NCBI GenBank assembly: GCA_965203325.1
Contig: OZ241875.1
Coordinates: 1,472,001 to 1,536,000, forward strand
Source of the DNA: a bacterium
Lineage (GTDB): Bacteria > UBA8248
DNA length: 64,000 bases
Reading direction: 5' to 3'
The translations under genes and the position numbers were made by a program. Position 1 is the first letter of the stretch; the number at the start of each line of letters is the position of its first letter. The notes beneath the pieces were generated by a model. That model had not been told where the DNA came from. It made no database searches and saw only the letters and a list, made by a program, of their open reading frames with translations. Shown here piece after piece: positions 4,105 through 10,684 of the stretch.

Positions 4105-4896
4105 TTAGATCAGCCGCTTTCTGACCTGCCATGCGGCGAATTCTCCCGCGAAAACCAGGGCGATGATCGCCAGCACAAGCACGCCTGATTTTTGCCACTG
4201 AAACTGCTTGACGTACAAGAACACGTAAAACCCCAAGCCCCCTGCACCGACGAGACCCAGAATCGTGGAATCGCGCAGATTCATCTCGAAACGTATGGCC
4301 AGATGCGCGACCATTTGCGGCAAAACCTGGGGAATGAGACCGTGTTGAATGATCTGAAGGGAAGAGGCCCCCGTGCCCTGTAGTGCCAGCAGAGGTTTCG
4401 GGTCGGTCGCCTCGATTTCCTCCGCCACGAACCGGCCGAGCACGCCGACAGAGTGCACCGCCAACGCCAGCACGCCGGGAAAAGGGCCGAGCCCCACGGC
4501 GGAGACGAACAACAATGCGAGGAGTAACAGTGGGATGGAGCGGACGAACGCCATAAACGCCTTGATGGGCAGGTGCACCCAAACCGGCGTCCAGTTCGAC
4601 GCCGCGAGTACGCCCAGTGGATAGGCAAACAAAGCACCCAGAAAAGTGCCCGCAATGGTGGTTTGCAGCGTTTCGACAGCCGAGGTCAGTAAAACATCCC
4701 AAACCGACCAATCGGGCGGCGTCATCCGGCCAAAGAAGTGAAACAGTTGGGGAACCCCGCGCCAGAATTGCCCGGGTGAAAACTCAGAACCCTGAAAAGA
4801 CCAGAATAAGAGTGCGCTAACCGCCAGGAAGAGGCTGACCTTGCCAGCCGTACGGCCAGGTGAAAGCGCTTCTGCTTGCTCTCGTTCCGTTCCCAT
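4105..4896 (-). CDS. phnE: PhnE/PtxC-type ABC permease
   Basis: GLGPFPGVLAL, RFEMNLRDSTILGLVGAGGLG. Confidence 0.88.
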   Translation of the reverse strand: MGTEREQAEALSPGRTAGKVSLFLAVSALLFWSFQGSEFSPGQFWRGVPQLFHFFGRMTPPDWSVWDVLLTSAVETLQTTIAGTFLGALFAYPLGVLAASNWTPVWVHLPIKAFMAFVRSIPLLLLALLFVSAVGLGPFPGVLALAVHSVGVLGRFVAEEIEATDPKPLLALQGTGASSLQIIQHGLIPQVLPQMVAHLAIRFEMNLRDSTILGLVGAGGLGFYVFLYVKQFQWQKSGVLVLAIIALVFAGEFAAWQVRKRLI

Positions 4897-5662
4897 TCAC
4901 GACTCCGTTCGTTCCCATGAACTCGTAGATTTCACATATCCTATCATTCGAGAGGGAATCCGAAGAACCATCCCACATGATTTTTCCGTTTTTCATCGCA
5001 AGGATTCTATCGGCATACTTGCGCGCCAGTTCGGGGAGGTGGAGGCTCATCATGAGCGTGAGTTCGTAGGCGTCGCAAACGGACACGAGAAGATCCATAA
5101 TGTCCTCTGCCAATGCCGGGTCCAGGCTCGAAACGGGTTCGTCTGCCAGCAGAATCGTCGGCTCCTGCGCCAACGCCCGGGCGATGGCCACGCGCTGCTG
5201 TTCTCCGCCGGAGAGCGTGCGGGCGAAGCGACGCTGCATGTCCTCGAGATGCACCTCGTGAATAGCCTGTGCGCAGATTTGCAAATCGCGCTGCGAGCAG
5301 ATTCCCAACGCGCTTTTGAGCAAAGACACGTAACCCAACCTTCCGTGATAGACGTTTTGCCAGACGGTTTCCCGGCCTATCAGGTCGAAATGCTGGTGAA
5401 TCATGCCGATATGGCGATGATGCGTTTTCATCTTCTGCGGGTCCTTGATCGGGAAAATATCCCCCATCACGACTACCTTCCCCTCATGGCAGGGCACGTA
5501 GCCCTTCAGCATTCTCATGAGGGTCGTCTTGCCGGAACCGCTGTTGCCGATGATGGCCAGCCTCTCCCCACGAGAGACCTCAAGATGATCAATGGCAAGA
5601 ATCGTCCGCCCCTCCATCTCCACGCGCGCATCTTCGATTTGGATGACCATTTCTTTCGACAT
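4817..5662 (-). CDS. phnC: PhnC/PtxA-type ABC ATP-binding protein
   Basis: [42 protein letters not shown]. Confidence 0.88.
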
Positions 5663-5665
5663 TTC

Positions 5666-6589
5666 CTACTCCTTCAAAAAACCATACCTACGAGCCATAT
5701 CGGCCACGGGTTGATATCGACTGTGATCGACTCTGACGTAACCATTTGTCCCGTAAAGAGCCCGCATCAAACTGCGATACTCGGGCCGGTTCATCTTCAT
5801 CATCGCCGCAATGAATTTTCGTCTGATTTCAGGCTCCAGGCCTTTGCGAACCACCACGTTGTGGCTGGGGATTCTGGCCGATTGCGCGATAGCGACGACT
5901 TGGTCGCGCTGCTCGGGACGGAGAAGATTGAGGGCGTATTGACTGACGCCGGCGGCGGCGACGAAGCCGCCGACCATCGAGTTGATCGCCTGCTGATCCC
6001 CGCCTGCAAAATAAACCCTTCGAAAAAATCCGCCCTCGGGCTTTCCCACTCCCCCATTCGCCAGACCAGCGTGGATGAAAATGTCATGGGGGTACATGAA
6101 CCCCGAACTCGAAATGGGATCGACATAAGCAATGGTCTTTCCCTTGAGATCGGATAGTCTCTTGATGCCGCTGTCCTTGCGAACGAAAATCCTCGCATAG
6201 TAGTAGGGTTTTCCGTCGTATATCTCCCCGAGCACCGCCTCGACTCCCGAATACTTGTTTGCCAGGACATAAGGCAGCGGAGACATGAAACTTACGTCCG
6301 CCTTTTTCGAGATCATCGCTTCTACTGCGGCCGAGTAGTTCAAGGTGATGAAATAGCGGACTTTCCGCCCCATTTCTTTTTCCAGGAAATTCATCGCAGG
6401 CCTCACGTTGCTGATGAGTTTCTCGGGATTCTCCAGCGGAATGAACGCGACCCGGAGCTCTCTATCGCTCGCGTAGAGGGGAGCCGCAGCAAACACCAAA
6501 AAGCTGAAAATAAGGAGAATCGCCATCTGAAATACGACCCTCGGCGCTCGCGGCGAAGATATTCGGATGAAACGCATGGTTCTGCTCAT
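5666..6589 (-). CDS. PhnD/PtxB-family substrate-binding protein (atypical binding residues)
   Basis: Signal peptide, NYSAAVEAM, YVDPISSSGFMYP, adjacent to phnC/phnE. Confidence 0.85.
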   Translation of the reverse strand: MSRTMRFIRISSPRAPRVVFQMAILLIFSFLVFAAAPLYASDRELRVAFIPLENPEKLISNVRPAMNFLEKEMGRKVRYFITLNYSAAVEAMISKKADVSFMSPLPYVLANKYSGVEAVLGEIYDGKPYYYARIFVRKDSGIKRLSDLKGKTIAYVDPISSSGFMYPHDIFIHAGLANGGVGKPEGGFFRRVYFAGGDQQAINSMVGGFVAAAGVSQYALNLLRPEQRDQVVAIAQSARIPSHNVVVRKGLEPEIRRKFIAAMMKMNRPEYRSLMRALYGTNGYVRVDHSRYQPVADMARRYGFLKE

Positions 6590-8547
6590 TTCAATTTGTC
6601 CTGGTTTTTCTGATAAAGAGCGTGATAAGCCGCTATTTTGCCGTCGGTCATCTTCACGTCGCCGTCCAGATGAGCTCGCAAGGCCTCATTCAGTTTCTTT
6701 TCCATTTCATTGAGAATCGGCAGGTTTCCCTTGTCCTGAACATCCCACTTGTGGGCCTGCACTTCACGCACCACGGTTTTCAGCAAGACGGTGATCAACT
6801 CTTTTTTCTTTCTCTGTTTCAACCGCTCATACGTGGAGAGGAAAAACTTGAACTCCTCCAACTCCGACTCCAGCGTGTAAACAGTATCCTCAATCCCCTG
6901 GACGCCATCACCCACGGCTTCGACGTAGGCCGTGAGATCGTCGATGTCCTTTGCACCCAATCCCAGCTTGAATTGCGTGTTGAACCATTCATTCACCGCC
7001 CGCAGGGTGGGCAGGCTCCCGTCGTGGAAATATGGGGCCGTGAATTTCGACGAGAGTAGTGTGGGCGTATCCAGGCCTCCCACGTGGAAGGGCTGGTTCT
7101 CTCCTCCCGTGGAACCGATGTTGTGGCGTTTGTGGTCGACGAAATTCGCATTTGGGATGTGACAACTCGCGCAACTCATGCCGCCCATCATCTGCGGAAA
7201 CTTCCGGTGAAATATCTTCTCGCCCCGAAGGGCTGCTTTCGAAACCTTCCCGGGATTCAGTCTCCCGCTTTTTCTCAGCTTCGGGTTCGGCAAGAATTCG
7301 AATTCGTTCATATAGGCGATCATCCCGTCCATGACCATCGGATCGGGCTCTGGCCCATTGAACTCGTTCACGATGACGTTGCGGACGAATTCCCTGAGCG
7401 AGGCGAAACGCCCGTTTCTGCCATATGGGGCCGTGAAGCGAATGCCCCGCAAATCGGGCGTGTCCAATGGATCGTGCAGGCCGTTGTTGGCGTGCCCTGC
7501 GAAGAAGCTGTTCGACACGTCCATCCCGCCCTTTTCCCTGGAAAGTCCCGGGATGAAGAATTTGGGATTCGTCACTCCCTTGTTGTGGCAAGTGTTGCAA
7601 CTTATTCCGAGGCTACGCGCTGGCTCGCCGAAAATCTCAGAACTGTCGAAAGCCATGTCTCCCAGGGCGATGAGAAAGGTTTCCGCCTCGTTTACTCCGC
7701 GCTCCGCCATGCCGAGAATTTGTCTTGGACGCGGGAGTTGCTTGTTGATATCGGAGCCGGGCGGCAGGCGCCTCGGCACTTTCGCTGATTGAATATACGT
7801 TTCGCTCGCCTTGGGACGGGGTAAAAGTCTGTGTTCTTTTCCGGCCCGGAACCCGGAAAAATTCGAATGGAAATATCGGCGAATAAACGCGACGCTCTCG
7901 CGGATTTTCTCCAGATTCATCGGCCTTGAGCCGATGCCCATCACGCCCGCAGCCCCAAGATGAGAATTCGCTTCGAGCCAGTGGACCTGCAGCCTCTTCC
8001 ACCCTTCCGGATCCAGATGCGGCAAGGCATCAGCGAAAGCCTGAGATATTCTGCGCGCCTCGTTCAGGCGGTTTTTCACCTCGGCTCTGCTCGAATCCGC
8101 TTTGATCCCGTCCAAGCGAGAGATTAACAACGAGGTGACTCCCCGCGTCACCAAAGAGAAAACCAAACGACTCCCGTTTTTGCGCGCGACGACCATATCC
8201 GGCTCTTCATCACCTCTGCCCACCGGCTGGGCCACATGCTTGGCAGCAGCCAACTCCGCCGAGTATTTTTTCGCGCCATGGGAATCCACAGCTCCGAGAG
8301 CTTCCTGGATACGCTCCATATCGGACCATACCTGCGGCCAGAGCACTGGATTCAGATTCAAGATGAAACTGACTCGACGATAACTTTCGGCAACGGGGTG
8401 CAATTCTTCGGGAGGGACGATGTGCGCCGAGGCCGGACTGAAACTCATCATCAGAAGCCCAGCGGCCATAAGCCATGCCGGCATCGTCAAGGAATTTTTC
8501 ACACGCAGTGCAAGACTCGCCCCGGGCGCCATGAGGCCGCATAACAT
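6586..8547 (-). CDS. Di-haem cytochrome c peroxidase/MauG-like protein with long N-terminal extension
   Basis: CNTCH and CASCH haem motifs, DTPDLRGIRFTAPY, DTPTLL...TAPYFHDGS; signal peptide ending ASA; start placed at ATG 8547 after GGAG. Confidence 0.8.
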   Translation of the reverse strand: MLCGLMAPGASLALRVKNSLTMPAWLMAAGLLMMSFSPASAHIVPPEELHPVAESYRRVSFILNLNPVLWPQVWSDMERIQEALGAVDSHGAKKYSAELAAAKHVAQPVGRGDEEPDMVVARKNGSRLVFSLVTRGVTSLLISRLDGIKADSSRAEVKNRLNEARRISQAFADALPHLDPEGWKRLQVHWLEANSHLGAAGVMGIGSRPMNLEKIRESVAFIRRYFHSNFSGFRAGKEHRLLPRPKASETYIQSAKVPRRLPPGSDINKQLPRPRQILGMAERGVNEAETFLIALGDMAFDSSEIFGEPARSLGISCNTCHNKGVTNPKFFIPGLSREKGGMDVSNSFFAGHANNGLHDPLDTPDLRGIRFTAPYGRNGRFASLREFVRNVIVNEFNGPEPDPMVMDGMIAYMNEFEFLPNPKLRKSGRLNPGKVSKAALRGEKIFHRKFPQMMGGMSCASCHIPNANFVDHKRHNIGSTGGENQPFHVGGLDTPTLLSSKFTAPYFHDGSLPTLRAVNEWFNTQFKLGLGAKDIDDLTAYVEAVGDGVQGIEDTVYTLESELEEFKFFLSTYERLKQRKKKELITVLLKTVVREVQAHKWDVQDKGNLPILNEMEKKLNEALRAHLDGDVKMTDGKIAAYHALYQKNQDKLK

Positions 8548-8581
8548 ATTTACGGTTCTCCAGAAAAACACCAACAAAACA

Positions 8582-8611
8582 ATTTTATTAATATCCAAAA
8601 AATAAAGTCAA
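8582..8611 (-). promoter_or_regulatory. Putative sigma70 promoter for the peroxidase-ABC operon
   Basis: Minus strand TTGACT-N18-TAAAAT in an AT-rich intergenic stretch. Confidence 0.55.
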
Positions 8612-8628
8612 CCCCTACTGAATAAATT

Positions 8629-8644
8629 TTTAGGCATGCCTAAA
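8629..8644. promoter_or_regulatory. Perfect 16-bp palindrome, DtxR/MntR-family-like operator
   Basis: TTTAGGCATGCCTAAA; resembles TTAGG-N-CCTAA boxes of DtxR/IdeR/MntR/SirR regulators. Confidence 0.55.
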
Positions 8645-8742: not shown

Positions 8743-8775
8743 AAAAAACCGGCCCTGGTAAAGGCCGGTTTTTTT
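8743..8775. terminator. Intrinsic terminator downstream of glnK (bidirectional shape)
   Basis: AAAAAACCGGCC-ctggtaaa-GGCCGGTTTTTTT. Confidence 0.8.
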
Positions 8776-8893: not shown

Positions 8894-9232
8894 TTAAATA
8901 GCGCTATCGCCTCTGTCGCCGGTGCGTATGCGCACGCAATCCTCCACCGGCTGGACGAATATCTTGCCATCTCCTATCTGGCCCGAATTCGCCGCATCGC
9001 AAATCGCCGTGACGATGGCATCGGCGTTATCATCCTGCGTCAATATTTCCACTTTGATTTTCGGCAGGAAATCGACCACGTACTCGCTGCCGCGATAAAG
9101 CTCGGTGTGTCCCTTCTGACGGCCAAAACCCTTCACTTCGGTGACCGTCATTCCCGTCACACCGGCATCTCCCAGAGTTTCTTTCACACTTTCCAGCTTG
9201 AATGGCTTAATAATCGCCGTGACTAAACGCAT
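8894..9232 (-). CDS. glnK: Nitrogen regulatory protein P-II
   Basis: IIKPFKL, GFGRQKGHTELYRGSEY, GDGKIF; linked to amtB. Confidence 0.95.
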   Translation of the reverse strand: MRLVTAIIKPFKLESVKETLGDAGVTGMTVTEVKGFGRQKGHTELYRGSEYVVDFLPKIKVEILTQDDNADAIVTAICDAANSGQIGDGKIFVQPVEDCVRIRTGDRGDSAI

Positions 9233-9292
9233 TGTTCATTCCTCTCAAGATGACGGATGGATTCATCCAGTATAAATCCCCTCGCGCTTGAA

Positions 9293-10684
9293 TTAACCCA
9301 GCCTCTCGCCCGCGTAGGCCTCCATGCCGTGCTCCGAGAGGTCGAGGCCGGCCGATTCGTCTTCTGCGGAAACGCGCACACCAATCACGGCTTTCACAAC
9401 CTGCCAAAGGATGAGGGACAAGACGAAGGTAAACACACCGACCGCGATGACACCCGTAAGCTGCTTGATAAAGAGCCCTGCACCGCCGCCGTAGAACAAC
9501 CCCACGACGCCATCGTCGATAGAAGGCGCGGCAAATAAACCGAGCGCAAGCGTCCCGAAGATGCCGCATACCAAGTGAACCGAAACGGCGCCGACCGGAT
9601 CGTCTATCTTGATCTTATCGAGAAACGGAACCGCAATGCAGACGATGACGCCCGCAGCCAGACCGATAATCACCGCTCCCAACGGAGTGACGTTGGCGCA
9701 TGGTGCTGTGATGGCCACCAGCCCTGCAAGCGCCCCGTTCACGCTCATGGAAAGATCGGCTTTGCCGAACATGGCCCGCGAAGTCATGCTCGAGGCTACG
9801 ACGCCCGCCGAGGCAGCGAGGTTTGTCGTCACCGCGATGCGCGCAATGGCGCCGGCGTCGGCGGCCATGGTGCTACCCGGGTTAAATCCGAACCACCCGA
9901 GCCATAATATGAATCCACCCAAGGTGACGAGCGGCATGTTGTGGCCAGGCATCGCCTGCATCCGGCCGTCGGACGTATACTTGCCGAGCCGGGGACCAAG
10001 AACGATAATTCCGGCGAGTCCCGCCCAACCACCTACGGAGTGAACCACGGTGGAACCGGCGAAATCGAGAAAACCCATTCCACCCAGCCAGCCGCCACCC
10101 CAAATCCAATGTCCCTGAATGGGATAGATGATGGCGACAAGCAGAAAACTGAAGATCATGAACGAGGAAAACTTGATACGCTCGGCCACACAGCCCGAGA
10201 CGATGGTCGCCGCCGTCGCTGCGAAAACGAGTTGGAAGAAAAACTTCGCGTATAGCGGCACGCCCGTCCAATTAAGTGACGAGAAAACACCTTTGTACGC
10301 ATCACCCGTGGCCGGACTGTTGTCCGCCCCCGAAAGGAAGAAACCGTTCGTTCCGAGTATCGAGCTGCCATCGCCAAACATGAGGGCAAAACCCAATATC
10401 CAAAATGCCAGGGACGAGACGGCGACGACGCCAAAATTCTTATAGAGAATGGCGACGGTGTTCTTGGCTCGACAAAGCCCCGATTCGAGCATCGCAAAGC
10501 CCGCATGCATGAAAAACACCAGAAACCCGGCCACCATCACCCAAACAGTGTCCGCCGCCACTTGCAAATCCGCGAGGCTCTTTGCCATGGCCTTGACATC
10601 CTGTGCCCAGCCGTTGCCGGCAAAAGACAAAACCCACATGGCGAAGACCAACACCGCCGTAACGTAGAGATTTCTTCTTCTCAT
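9293..10684 (-). CDS. amtB: Ammonium transporter
   Basis: DFAGSTVVH, GWFGFNPGS, DDPVGAVSVH. Confidence 0.95.
   Translation of the reverse strand: MRRRNLYVTAVLVFAMWVLSFAGNGWAQDVKAMAKSLADLQVAADTVWVMVAGFLVFFMHAGFAMLESGLCRAKNTVAILYKNFGVVAVSSLAFWILGFALMFGDGSSILGTNGFFLSGADNSPATGDAYKGVFSSLNWTGVPLYAKFFFQLVFAATAATIVSGCVAERIKFSSFMIFSFLLVAIIYPIQGHWIWGGGWLGGMGFLDFAGSTVVHSVGGWAGLAGIIVLGPRLGKYTSDGRMQAMPGHNMPLVTLGGFILWLGWFGFNPGSTMAADAGAIARIAVTTNLAASAGVVASSMTSRAMFGKADLSMSVNGALAGLVAITAPCANVTPLGAVIIGLAAGVIVCIAVPFLDKIKIDDPVGAVSVHLVCGIFGTLALGLFAAPSIDDGVVGLFYGGGAGLFIKQLTGVIAVGVFTFVLSLILWQVVKAVIGVRVSAEDESAGLDLSEHGMEAYAGERLG

Follow-up and report, generated by a model that had tools for sequence, protein, structure and literature searches.

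What does a two-haem cytochrome do at the head of an operon annotated for phosphonate uptake? The question is raised by a locus in a stretch of 64,000 nucleotides (the window) from a bacterium of the GTDB lineage UBA8248 (GenBank assembly GCA_965203325.1, contig OZ241875.1, positions 1,472,001 to 1,536,000), in which four genes, all on the minus strand, encode in order a di-haem c protein, a substrate-binding protein, an ABC ATPase and an ABC permease. The original prediction proposed a periplasmic redox step coupled to the import of a metal or a reduced oxyanion, and not ordinary phosphonate uptake. Our analysis supports the import of a metal: the gene linkage is conserved, and the upstream region carries an MntR-type box and, as scanned, no Pho-box-like match near the cassette promoter, in agreement with an operon outside Pho regulation. 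We narrow the cargo to a metal, most likely manganese, and hold it rather probable that the cassette is a manganese-starvation importer with a docked periplasmic redox partner. What the databases label as a "cytochrome c peroxidase plus phosphonate transporter" looks like an undescribed manganese uptake system.

A conserved four-gene cassette

The features of the locus are the following (window coordinates).

8629..8644, no strand: candidate operator of the MntR/DtxR family, TTTAG-N6-CTAAA, a perfect palindrome over 16 bp that stands 17 bp ahead of the -35 box
8582..8611, minus strand: sigma-70-like promoter (TTGACT, 18 nt, TAAAAT; 1 found, 0.3 expected), conserved in aligned close relatives
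6586..8547, minus strand: di-haem c protein of the CCP_MauG superfamily (open frame 6586-8598, to a TTG at 8598)
7585..7599, minus strand: haem motif 1, CNTCH (CxxCH), read in the sequence and invariant in 93 homologues
7159..7173, minus strand: haem motif 2, CASCH (CxxCH), read in the sequence and invariant in 93 homologues
5666..6589, minus strand: PhnD-fold substrate-binding protein with an altered pocket (Tyr85, Tyr130, Asp198, Pro-Ser-His243), from profile and alignment
4817..5662, minus strand: PhnC-like ABC ATPase (phnC-like profile 233, cut-off 266)
4105..4896, minus strand: PhnE-like ABC permease (PhnE profile 267, cut-off 217, passed)

The product of the first gene matches Pfam CCP_MauG (E-value = 1.4e-12). 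Its start is likely the ATG at 8547, because this gives a protein of 653 aa as in relatives, a GGAGA ribosome site lies ahead of it, and the -10 box (8582-8587) falls inside the longer TTG frame. The sequence confirms that this gene with its two CxxCH motifs overlaps the start of the binding-protein gene (ATGA, 6586-6589), as originally described, and the profiles confirm the phnC- and phnE-like genes that follow. The binding protein matches Pfam Phosphonate-bd (PF12974, E-value = 1.5e-55); it passes the subfamily model TIGR01098 (178.5, cut-off 112) and stays under the PhnD equivalog cut-off (173 against 261). Each cassette gene is single-copy in the 4.39-Mb, one-contig, 95%-complete genome. 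The lack of C-P lyase and phnX genes, first noted for the window, holds for this whole genome, in which PhnJ was not found and no phosphonatase (PhnX) exceeded its cut-off; ptxD was not searched.

A gene-neighbourhood check bears out the linkage of CCP_MauG, Phosphonate-bd, PhnC and PhnE in several phyla and on plasmids. All four genes stand in order at 50 of 54 genome loci. Three more are cut by contig ends, one of them still with the binding protein, and the one exception among the 54 (L050) holds a homologue without the transporter. The cassette records span Nitrospinota, Planctomycetota, Acidobacteriota, Hydrogenedentota, Oligoflexia and Sumerlaeota, those of close relatives being labelled "Nitrospinota" or "bacterium". 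Among 80 metagenome loci, the binding protein comes next in all 63 with at least 500 bp downstream (60 by script, 3 by inspection), and all three transporter genes follow in all 37 with enough room. A second, alphaproteobacterial clade, about 39% identical, lies on plasmids, mostly of marine roseobacters and Roseibium/Labrenzia; of 87 matching records, 43 span 80% or more of the di-haem protein. Six of the seven plasmid loci opened carry the full cassette, and in the seventh the record breaks off partway through the binding-protein gene. An eighth record opened proved to be a weak partial match in an unrelated gene context. Since the gene order is kept across phyla, the four-gene arrangement is more than chance.

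The acyl-CoA ligase, M20 hydrolase and glnK/amtB flanks were rejected as parts of the system: they are absent beside three loci (L024, L026 and L028) and are not among the recurring distant neighbours beyond the close family. The amtB-glnK pair itself (8894-10684, just upstream on the same strand) is ordinary, with a terminator-like hairpin near 8755 in between. A gene of the outer-membrane transporter-like family Phenol_MetA_deg stands beside the cassette at 11 of 31 distant genome loci (e.g. L037 12257-13120) and 8 of 80 metagenome loci; its product is a candidate outer-membrane channel of the system.

A candidate operator, its regulators and the manganese transporters of relatives

The end coordinate of the original prediction, 8644, is the outer edge of the operator palindrome, which was itself left unmentioned. 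No other TTTAG-N6-CTAAA site occurs in the window, and none in 100 shuffles. Scored with a position weight matrix built from the sites of relatives at the closest loci, the palindrome is, at 33.5 bits, the top site of the genome; a single further site exceeds 20 bits, and three shuffles contain none. It is found at 26 of the 27 closest loci with at most one core mismatch, and at 27 of 27 at a looser setting. The genome-wide count of the degenerate box was rejected as a signal, being no higher than in a reversed control; it is the position of the box, not its count, that carries the signal.

According to the available part of its description (bioRxiv 2024.02.12.579695), the site bound by the Deinococcus manganese sensor DR2539, ahead of its manganese transporter gene, has the shape of this palindrome, and the sensor uses Asp11, Glu102, Glu105 and His106. 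All four residues are present in the MntR-like gene of this genome (G000 1298703-1299341), which has Asp and Glu at the DtxR Met10 and Cys102 sites and whose best NCBIfam match is the manganese-dependent MntR, at a score (196) below the cut-off (350). We infer that this regulator binds the palindrome. In all, 44 related loci have a DtxR-family gene beside the cassette. They comprise 12 of the 54 genome loci (upstream in 10, downstream in 2), 25 of the 80 metagenome loci and each of the 7 plasmid loci opened. Glu, the mark of MntR/TroR (PMC2628430, in the part available), occupies the DtxR Cys102 site in 42 of these 44 regulators, and Cys does so in 2. At the seven plasmid loci the divergent gene is annotated "manganese-binding MntR", with a TTAG-N6-CTAA box between the divergent genes; this MntR is of a different branch of the family. 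The enterobacterial MntR consensus, which fits the plasmid sites only with 4-5 mismatches, was discarded. The TAGC-N4-GCTA core is nonetheless similar to alphaproteobacterial sites given in Table S5 of PMC1698941, a source whose accessible portion, including Tables S3 (part 1) and S5, gives only mntH and mntR as alphaproteobacterial MntR targets.

Where relatives have no cassette, the box stands ahead of MntH, TroABCD or MntR-FeoB genes instead. Within a phylum of 51 genomes, 20 regions were fetched, of which 19 were selected for box matches and the remaining one for an NRAMP gene. The box precedes MntH in G013 and TroABCD in G042-G045. In G048 and G050 it precedes an MntR-FeoB pair whose MntR has twin FeoA domains, in G041 feoAB, and in G010 and G037 a multicopper oxidase of two domains together with ZIP; an MntR-type gene is also boxed in G046 and G049. 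In six of the 20 regions, that of the G008 NRAMP among them, either a clear metal gene or a strong site was missing. The flanks of TroABCD in G042-G045, a CMD/cyclase gene on one side and an acyl-CoA ligase gene on the other, are those of the cassette in the present genome. The oxidase-ZIP module of G037 stands ahead of that ligase and the M20 hydrolase, in the chromosomal slot of the cassette; this suggests that oxidation is a recurring theme of the boxed regulon. The cassette occurs in 31 of the 51 genomes, MntH over the cut-off in 2 and a match to the TroA query in 5, with no overlap, the MntH- and TroA-bearing genomes representing few lineages and not independent samples. Neither an NRAMP nor a TroA-type transporter was found in the present 95%-complete genome, and its sole ZnuA-family protein, being His-rich and adjoined by CobW-like genes, probably serves zinc.

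Several side observations concern these boxes and regulators. The boxed multicopper oxidase and ZIP-like permease (L095 2068-5458 in G037, with cytochrome c and SCO genes; L093 1-2384 in G010) form a second candidate module of oxidase-coupled manganese uptake. Small exported cupredoxin-like proteins are also headed by the box (L092 5977-6459 in G012, L094 95-550 in G013). TroC- and TroD-like permeases at L096 7326-10100 both carry a C-terminal domain of the DtxR dimerisation type. The second strong box of the genome (L055 5619-6176, G000 near 353241) is followed, after about 65 bp, by an ORF of 185 aa, exported-looking and coiled-coil, that matched nothing in Pfam or NCBIfam. At L057 4395-7934 (G000 131394-134933), a FutA/FbpA-like Fe(III) ABC transporter comes directly after a DtxR-family regulator of Cys type that has a Cys cluster at its C-terminus; regulators like it stand behind the cassette in L038 and L152.

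The rival that survives best concerns the metal. The cassette may serve iron, or iron and manganese together, as a functional analogue of EfeUOB, with Fe(II) oxidised by the haem protein and Fe(III) bound in the transferrin-like pocket described below. The same box does head feoB or feoAB in G041, G048 and G050, and by default FeoB carries iron. Of the 44 flanking regulators, two are Cys-type; TroR-type repressors can respond to both metals (PMC2628430, accessible part), and sites of Tyr/Tyr/His favour Fe(III), as established for transferrin (PMC3525939, accessible part). Yet the other 42 regulators are Glu-type, those on plasmids are annotated as manganese-binding, and the twin-FeoA MntR followed by FeoB is the layout of the P. 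gingivalis manganese transporter operon (PMC4805248, as far as available). Moreover, the genome has elsewhere a separate FutA/FbpA-like system with its own Cys-type DtxR gene and no top-ranked box, and an Irr element was rejected on spacing (N7, against N6 in the palindrome). We judge iron, alone or together with manganese, unlikely.

The binding-protein pocket and its di-haem partner

In phosphorus-binding members of the PhnD type the binding site combines an STS motif with a Tyr, a His and a cap residue (PMC10284923, in the part available). The Tyr and the STS-type anion motif are kept, as Tyr85 and SSSG in the clade of the window and as His and SESG in the alphaproteobacterial clade; the anion-pocket residues Tyr85, Asp157 and Ser160-Ser162-Gly163 are retained. 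The ligand His of PhnD/PtxB is not present. Its column holds Asp (Asp198) in 109 and Tyr in 10 of 120 sequences of the window clade, and Tyr in all 120 of the second clade; one alignment sets the column one residue off, still with no His. The cap position, Tyr in PtxB and Asp in HtxB, is His243 of a Pro-Ser-His motif found in 116 of 120 and 119 of 120 sequences of the two clades, respectively. Tyr85/Ser161/Asp198 in one clade correspond to His/Glu/Tyr in the other, a covariation of pocket residues that would be expected for a kept set of metal ligands.

A 28-column profile of the Pro-Ser-His segment matches melanotransferrin first (E-value = 0.009) and serotransferrin next; transferrins and lactoferrins fill most of its 49 PDB rows, among which there is no PhnD-type protein. 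In this alignment His243 falls on His249, which with Tyr95, Tyr188 and Asp63 provides the transferrin metal ligands (PMC3525939). The full binding-protein profile also reaches melanotransferrin (E-value = 4e-8) and covers serotransferrin residues 43-131, a range that spans Tyr95 and the anion site. The Asp198/Tyr column may equal transferrin Tyr188. A single-sequence search with 27 aa of the Pro-Ser-His segment matched nothing. A transferrin-like metal site in the binding protein is a supported lead, short of an established result. As a side observation, the ESM Atlas holds a Nitrososphaerota cluster of PhnD-like proteins with Pfam Transferrin on 51% of its members, possibly an archaeal metal-binding branch.

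The di-haem protein is predicted to be exported by its signal peptide. Its fold model (pLDDT 77, low in both haem regions) consists of a helical N-terminal domain, a haem core and a C-terminal four-helix bundle. The protein falls under every NCBIfam equivalog cut-off (TIGR03791, 30 against 444; TIGR04039, 54 against 363), and its best PDB profile match is hydrazine synthase gamma, an electron-transfer-type chain. The invariant Trp538 (Trp in 35 of 35) aligns with a Met of 3o5c and 9qdt which we take to be the axial ligand of the C-terminal haem of bCcP, and no conserved MauG-type Tyr follows the aligned helix in the homologue alignment. On these grounds "peroxidase" is a family label only. Of the original "di-haem peroxidase", the di-haem part stands with the two CxxCH motifs; the peroxidase part reduces to that label, the Met/Tyr haem ligand of bCcP/MauG not having been found. 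The sixth ligand could be a His that is invariant and follows the second CxxCH by 12 residues. The peroxidatic haem of the bCcP/MauG superfamily has a distal Gln-Pro-Glu triad (PMC6405878, accessible part); here an invariant Glu412 is present with no Gln or Pro before it, its register to the triad not being fixed by the alignment. Both haem motifs and many residues of the haem domain are invariant across clades.

A docking model of the di-haem and binding proteins scores 0.78, against 0.11 for the best control, with contacts that agree to at least 96% and a partner pLDDT of at least 85. The docking mark is reached by 116 of 157 solved pairs and 2 of 215 mismatched pairs, counts that are rough with our own alignments. 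In the model, residues 143-167 and 556-560 of the mature di-haem protein contact the cleft rim, including Tyr85 and residues 192-196; the N-terminal helical domain would thus dock on the binding-protein cleft. The homologue without a transporter, in L050, lacks about residues 116-223, the stretch with the docking helix, as a single case; shorter relatives (400-470 aa) are also without the N-terminal domain. We know of no solved complex of this kind. A Foldseek search with the alignment-based model structure returned nothing at E-value ≤ 0.001 (weak rows were bCcP, MauG and HZS), the VIA-align rows for residues 508-612 are generic four-helix bundles with the N-terminal domain barely covered, and the ESM Atlas gave no usable match for that domain. 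The single-sequence AlphaFold model of the di-haem protein (pLDDT 39) was too low to use.

Two further candidates were dropped. A universal metal site formed by an N-terminal His or a C-terminal Glu/His cluster is not kept in the alphaproteobacterial clade. A fusion of the haem domain with the binding protein was not seen in five long homologues, which have propeller-like or unassigned N-termini and no binding-protein domain; longer forms were not searched exhaustively. Separately, the same haem core stands behind a propeller-like N-terminal domain in P0151, P0154, P0162, P0232 and P0269 (610-660 aa).

The proposed import cycle, its rivals and known systems

Manganese import by the cassette could proceed as follows. 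At low cytoplasmic manganese the MntR-type repressor (G000 1298703-1299341) would leave the palindrome and the four genes would be transcribed. The exported two-haem protein would use its N-terminal helical domain to dock at the binding protein's mouth, shift the oxidation state of the metal, most plausibly from Mn(II) to Mn(III) with peroxide or another acceptor, and hand the metal over. The binding protein would hold it by Tyr, His and Asp/Tyr together with an anion in the inherited Ser-Ser-Ser-Gly pocket, like one lobe of transferrin, and once loaded would deliver it to the PhnCE-type importer. In its strict form, a "transferrin cycle" for manganese in which the docked di-haem enzyme oxidises Mn(II), loads a single-lobe transferrin-like protein and leaves the unloading to the ABC importer, we offer this proposal as tentative and doubtful.

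Besides the points already given for iron, the following weigh against manganese import with a redox partner. Kin do not count as independent samples. The box lies within 450 bp at a low count of more distant loci, 15 of 83 at 12 bits (0.3 expected), and 4 of those 15 are fairly close relatives; in the window it lies upstream of the -35 box, off the promoter core. Exclusivity is incomplete in that G049 holds both the cassette and the boxed MntR-type gene. The haem domain lacks a canonical Met/Tyr ligand and is poorly modelled. As for transferrin likeness, the binding protein is far closer to PtxB (E-value = 4e-38, against 4e-8 for melanotransferrin). The E-values of the Pro-Ser-His segment are weak, 0.009 at best, and three further segment profiles (A4, A5 and A7: the Tyr95 strand, the Tyr188 segment and the alphaproteobacterial clade) matched no transferrin. 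In what we take to be the column of Asp63, most members have Ser, Gly or Pro, and 3 of 31 have Asp.

Also unlikely, and next in standing, is a manganese importer whose haem protein is no metal oxidiser: it would reduce Mn(III) complexes or oxides to Mn(II), or act as a maturase that modifies the binding protein, as MbnH modifies MbnP. Docking on the cleft rim, as modelled, fits either role; the match to an electron-transfer-type chain, hydrazine synthase gamma, and the missing Gln and Pro of the peroxidatic triad (PMC6405878, accessible part) fit as well. Strict 1:1 translational coupling, by contrast, would suit a stoichiometric partner over a one-time catalyst, the Tyr/Asp/His pocket would suit a trivalent ion, and in G037 it is a multicopper oxidase with ZIP that takes the same boxed slot. 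Import of a complex of Mn(II) with phosphate or carbonate, with no redox step and the haem protein as a scaffold, sensor or peroxide guard, could draw on the retained anion pocket (Tyr85, Asp157, Ser160-Ser162-Gly163) and has a parallel in metal-phosphate co-uptake by Pit carriers. It is very unlikely in view of the invariance of both haem motifs and of many haem-domain residues across clades and of the di-haem gene always standing first. Ordinary uptake of phosphonate, phosphite or phosphate, as annotated, agrees with the fold, the best matches (PtxB/PhnD), the permease passing the PhnE cut-off and the ability of PhnD proteins to work without catabolic genes (PMC10284923, accessible part), but is likewise very unlikely because the phosphorus-binding His and the cap residue are replaced, operator and regulators are of MntR type with no Pho-box-like match near the promoter, and the genome has no PhnJ and no PhnX over the cut-off.

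Manganese import with a redox partner, if true, would explain the manganese supply of many mostly marine bacteria without MntH or TroA, and would add a redox-coupled route of manganese uptake. A block of "phnD/phnE" annotations, tallied as phosphonate use in ocean surveys, would be corrected, and a CCP_MauG clade so far uncharacterised would gain a partner and a substrate open to test. The cassette is carried on conjugative metal-homeostasis plasmids of cultured roseobacters. The transferrin cycle, in turn, would represent a dedicated Mn(III) import route, add a class to the manganese importers MntH, TroABCD and FeoB2, and illustrate in living organisms the passage from a phosphonate-type anion pocket to a transferrin-type metal site. 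No paper appearing to describe the cassette was found in the literature searched, in part; subscription journals, RegPrecise and supplements may hold one. The accessible part of PMC6405878 never mentions phosphonate.

Among known systems, the PtxABC, PhnCDE and HtxBCDE importers (PtxB, PhnD, HtxB, AioX, ArrX) share with the cassette the fold, the anion pocket of Tyr and Ser-x-Ser and the PhnC-/PhnE-like partners. The cassette differs from them by Asp/Tyr in place of His, His in place of the cap residue, a leading di-haem gene, MntR-type control and the lack of genes for phosphorus catabolism (PhnJ, PhnX). MntH, TroABCD/SitABCD and FeoB2 have the same operator and regulator type and take the place of the cassette in relatives, in one case at the very same slot, whereas their proteins are unrelated to those of the cassette and have no haem partner. 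The group of bCcP, MauG, BthA, MbnH and hydrazine synthase gamma shares the two CxxCH domains and the PYFHDG motif with the di-haem protein, which differs by Trp at the bCcP Met site, the lack of a MauG-type Tyr, an extra N-terminal helical domain and the C-terminal four-helix bundle. To a transferrin lobe the binding protein shows remote homology, with Pro-Ser-His aligned to His249 and a matched range covering the Tyr95 strand and the anion site; in contrast, its Asp63 position is mostly Ser/Gly and overall it is much closer to PtxB. EfeUOB and Fet3/Ftr1 are systems of redox-coupled iron uptake. The cassette has an EfeUOB-like logic, with an exported redox enzyme, a metal-binding protein and an importer under a metal repressor. 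It has, however, a c-type di-haem protein for the DyP peroxidase, a PhnD fold for EfeO, an ABC importer for FTR1 and an MntR-type repressor for Fur, and profile searches matched none of the four cassette proteins to the DyP peroxidase, EfeO or FTR1 families. By analogy, the cassette, a member of none of the families tested, would work like EfeUOB.

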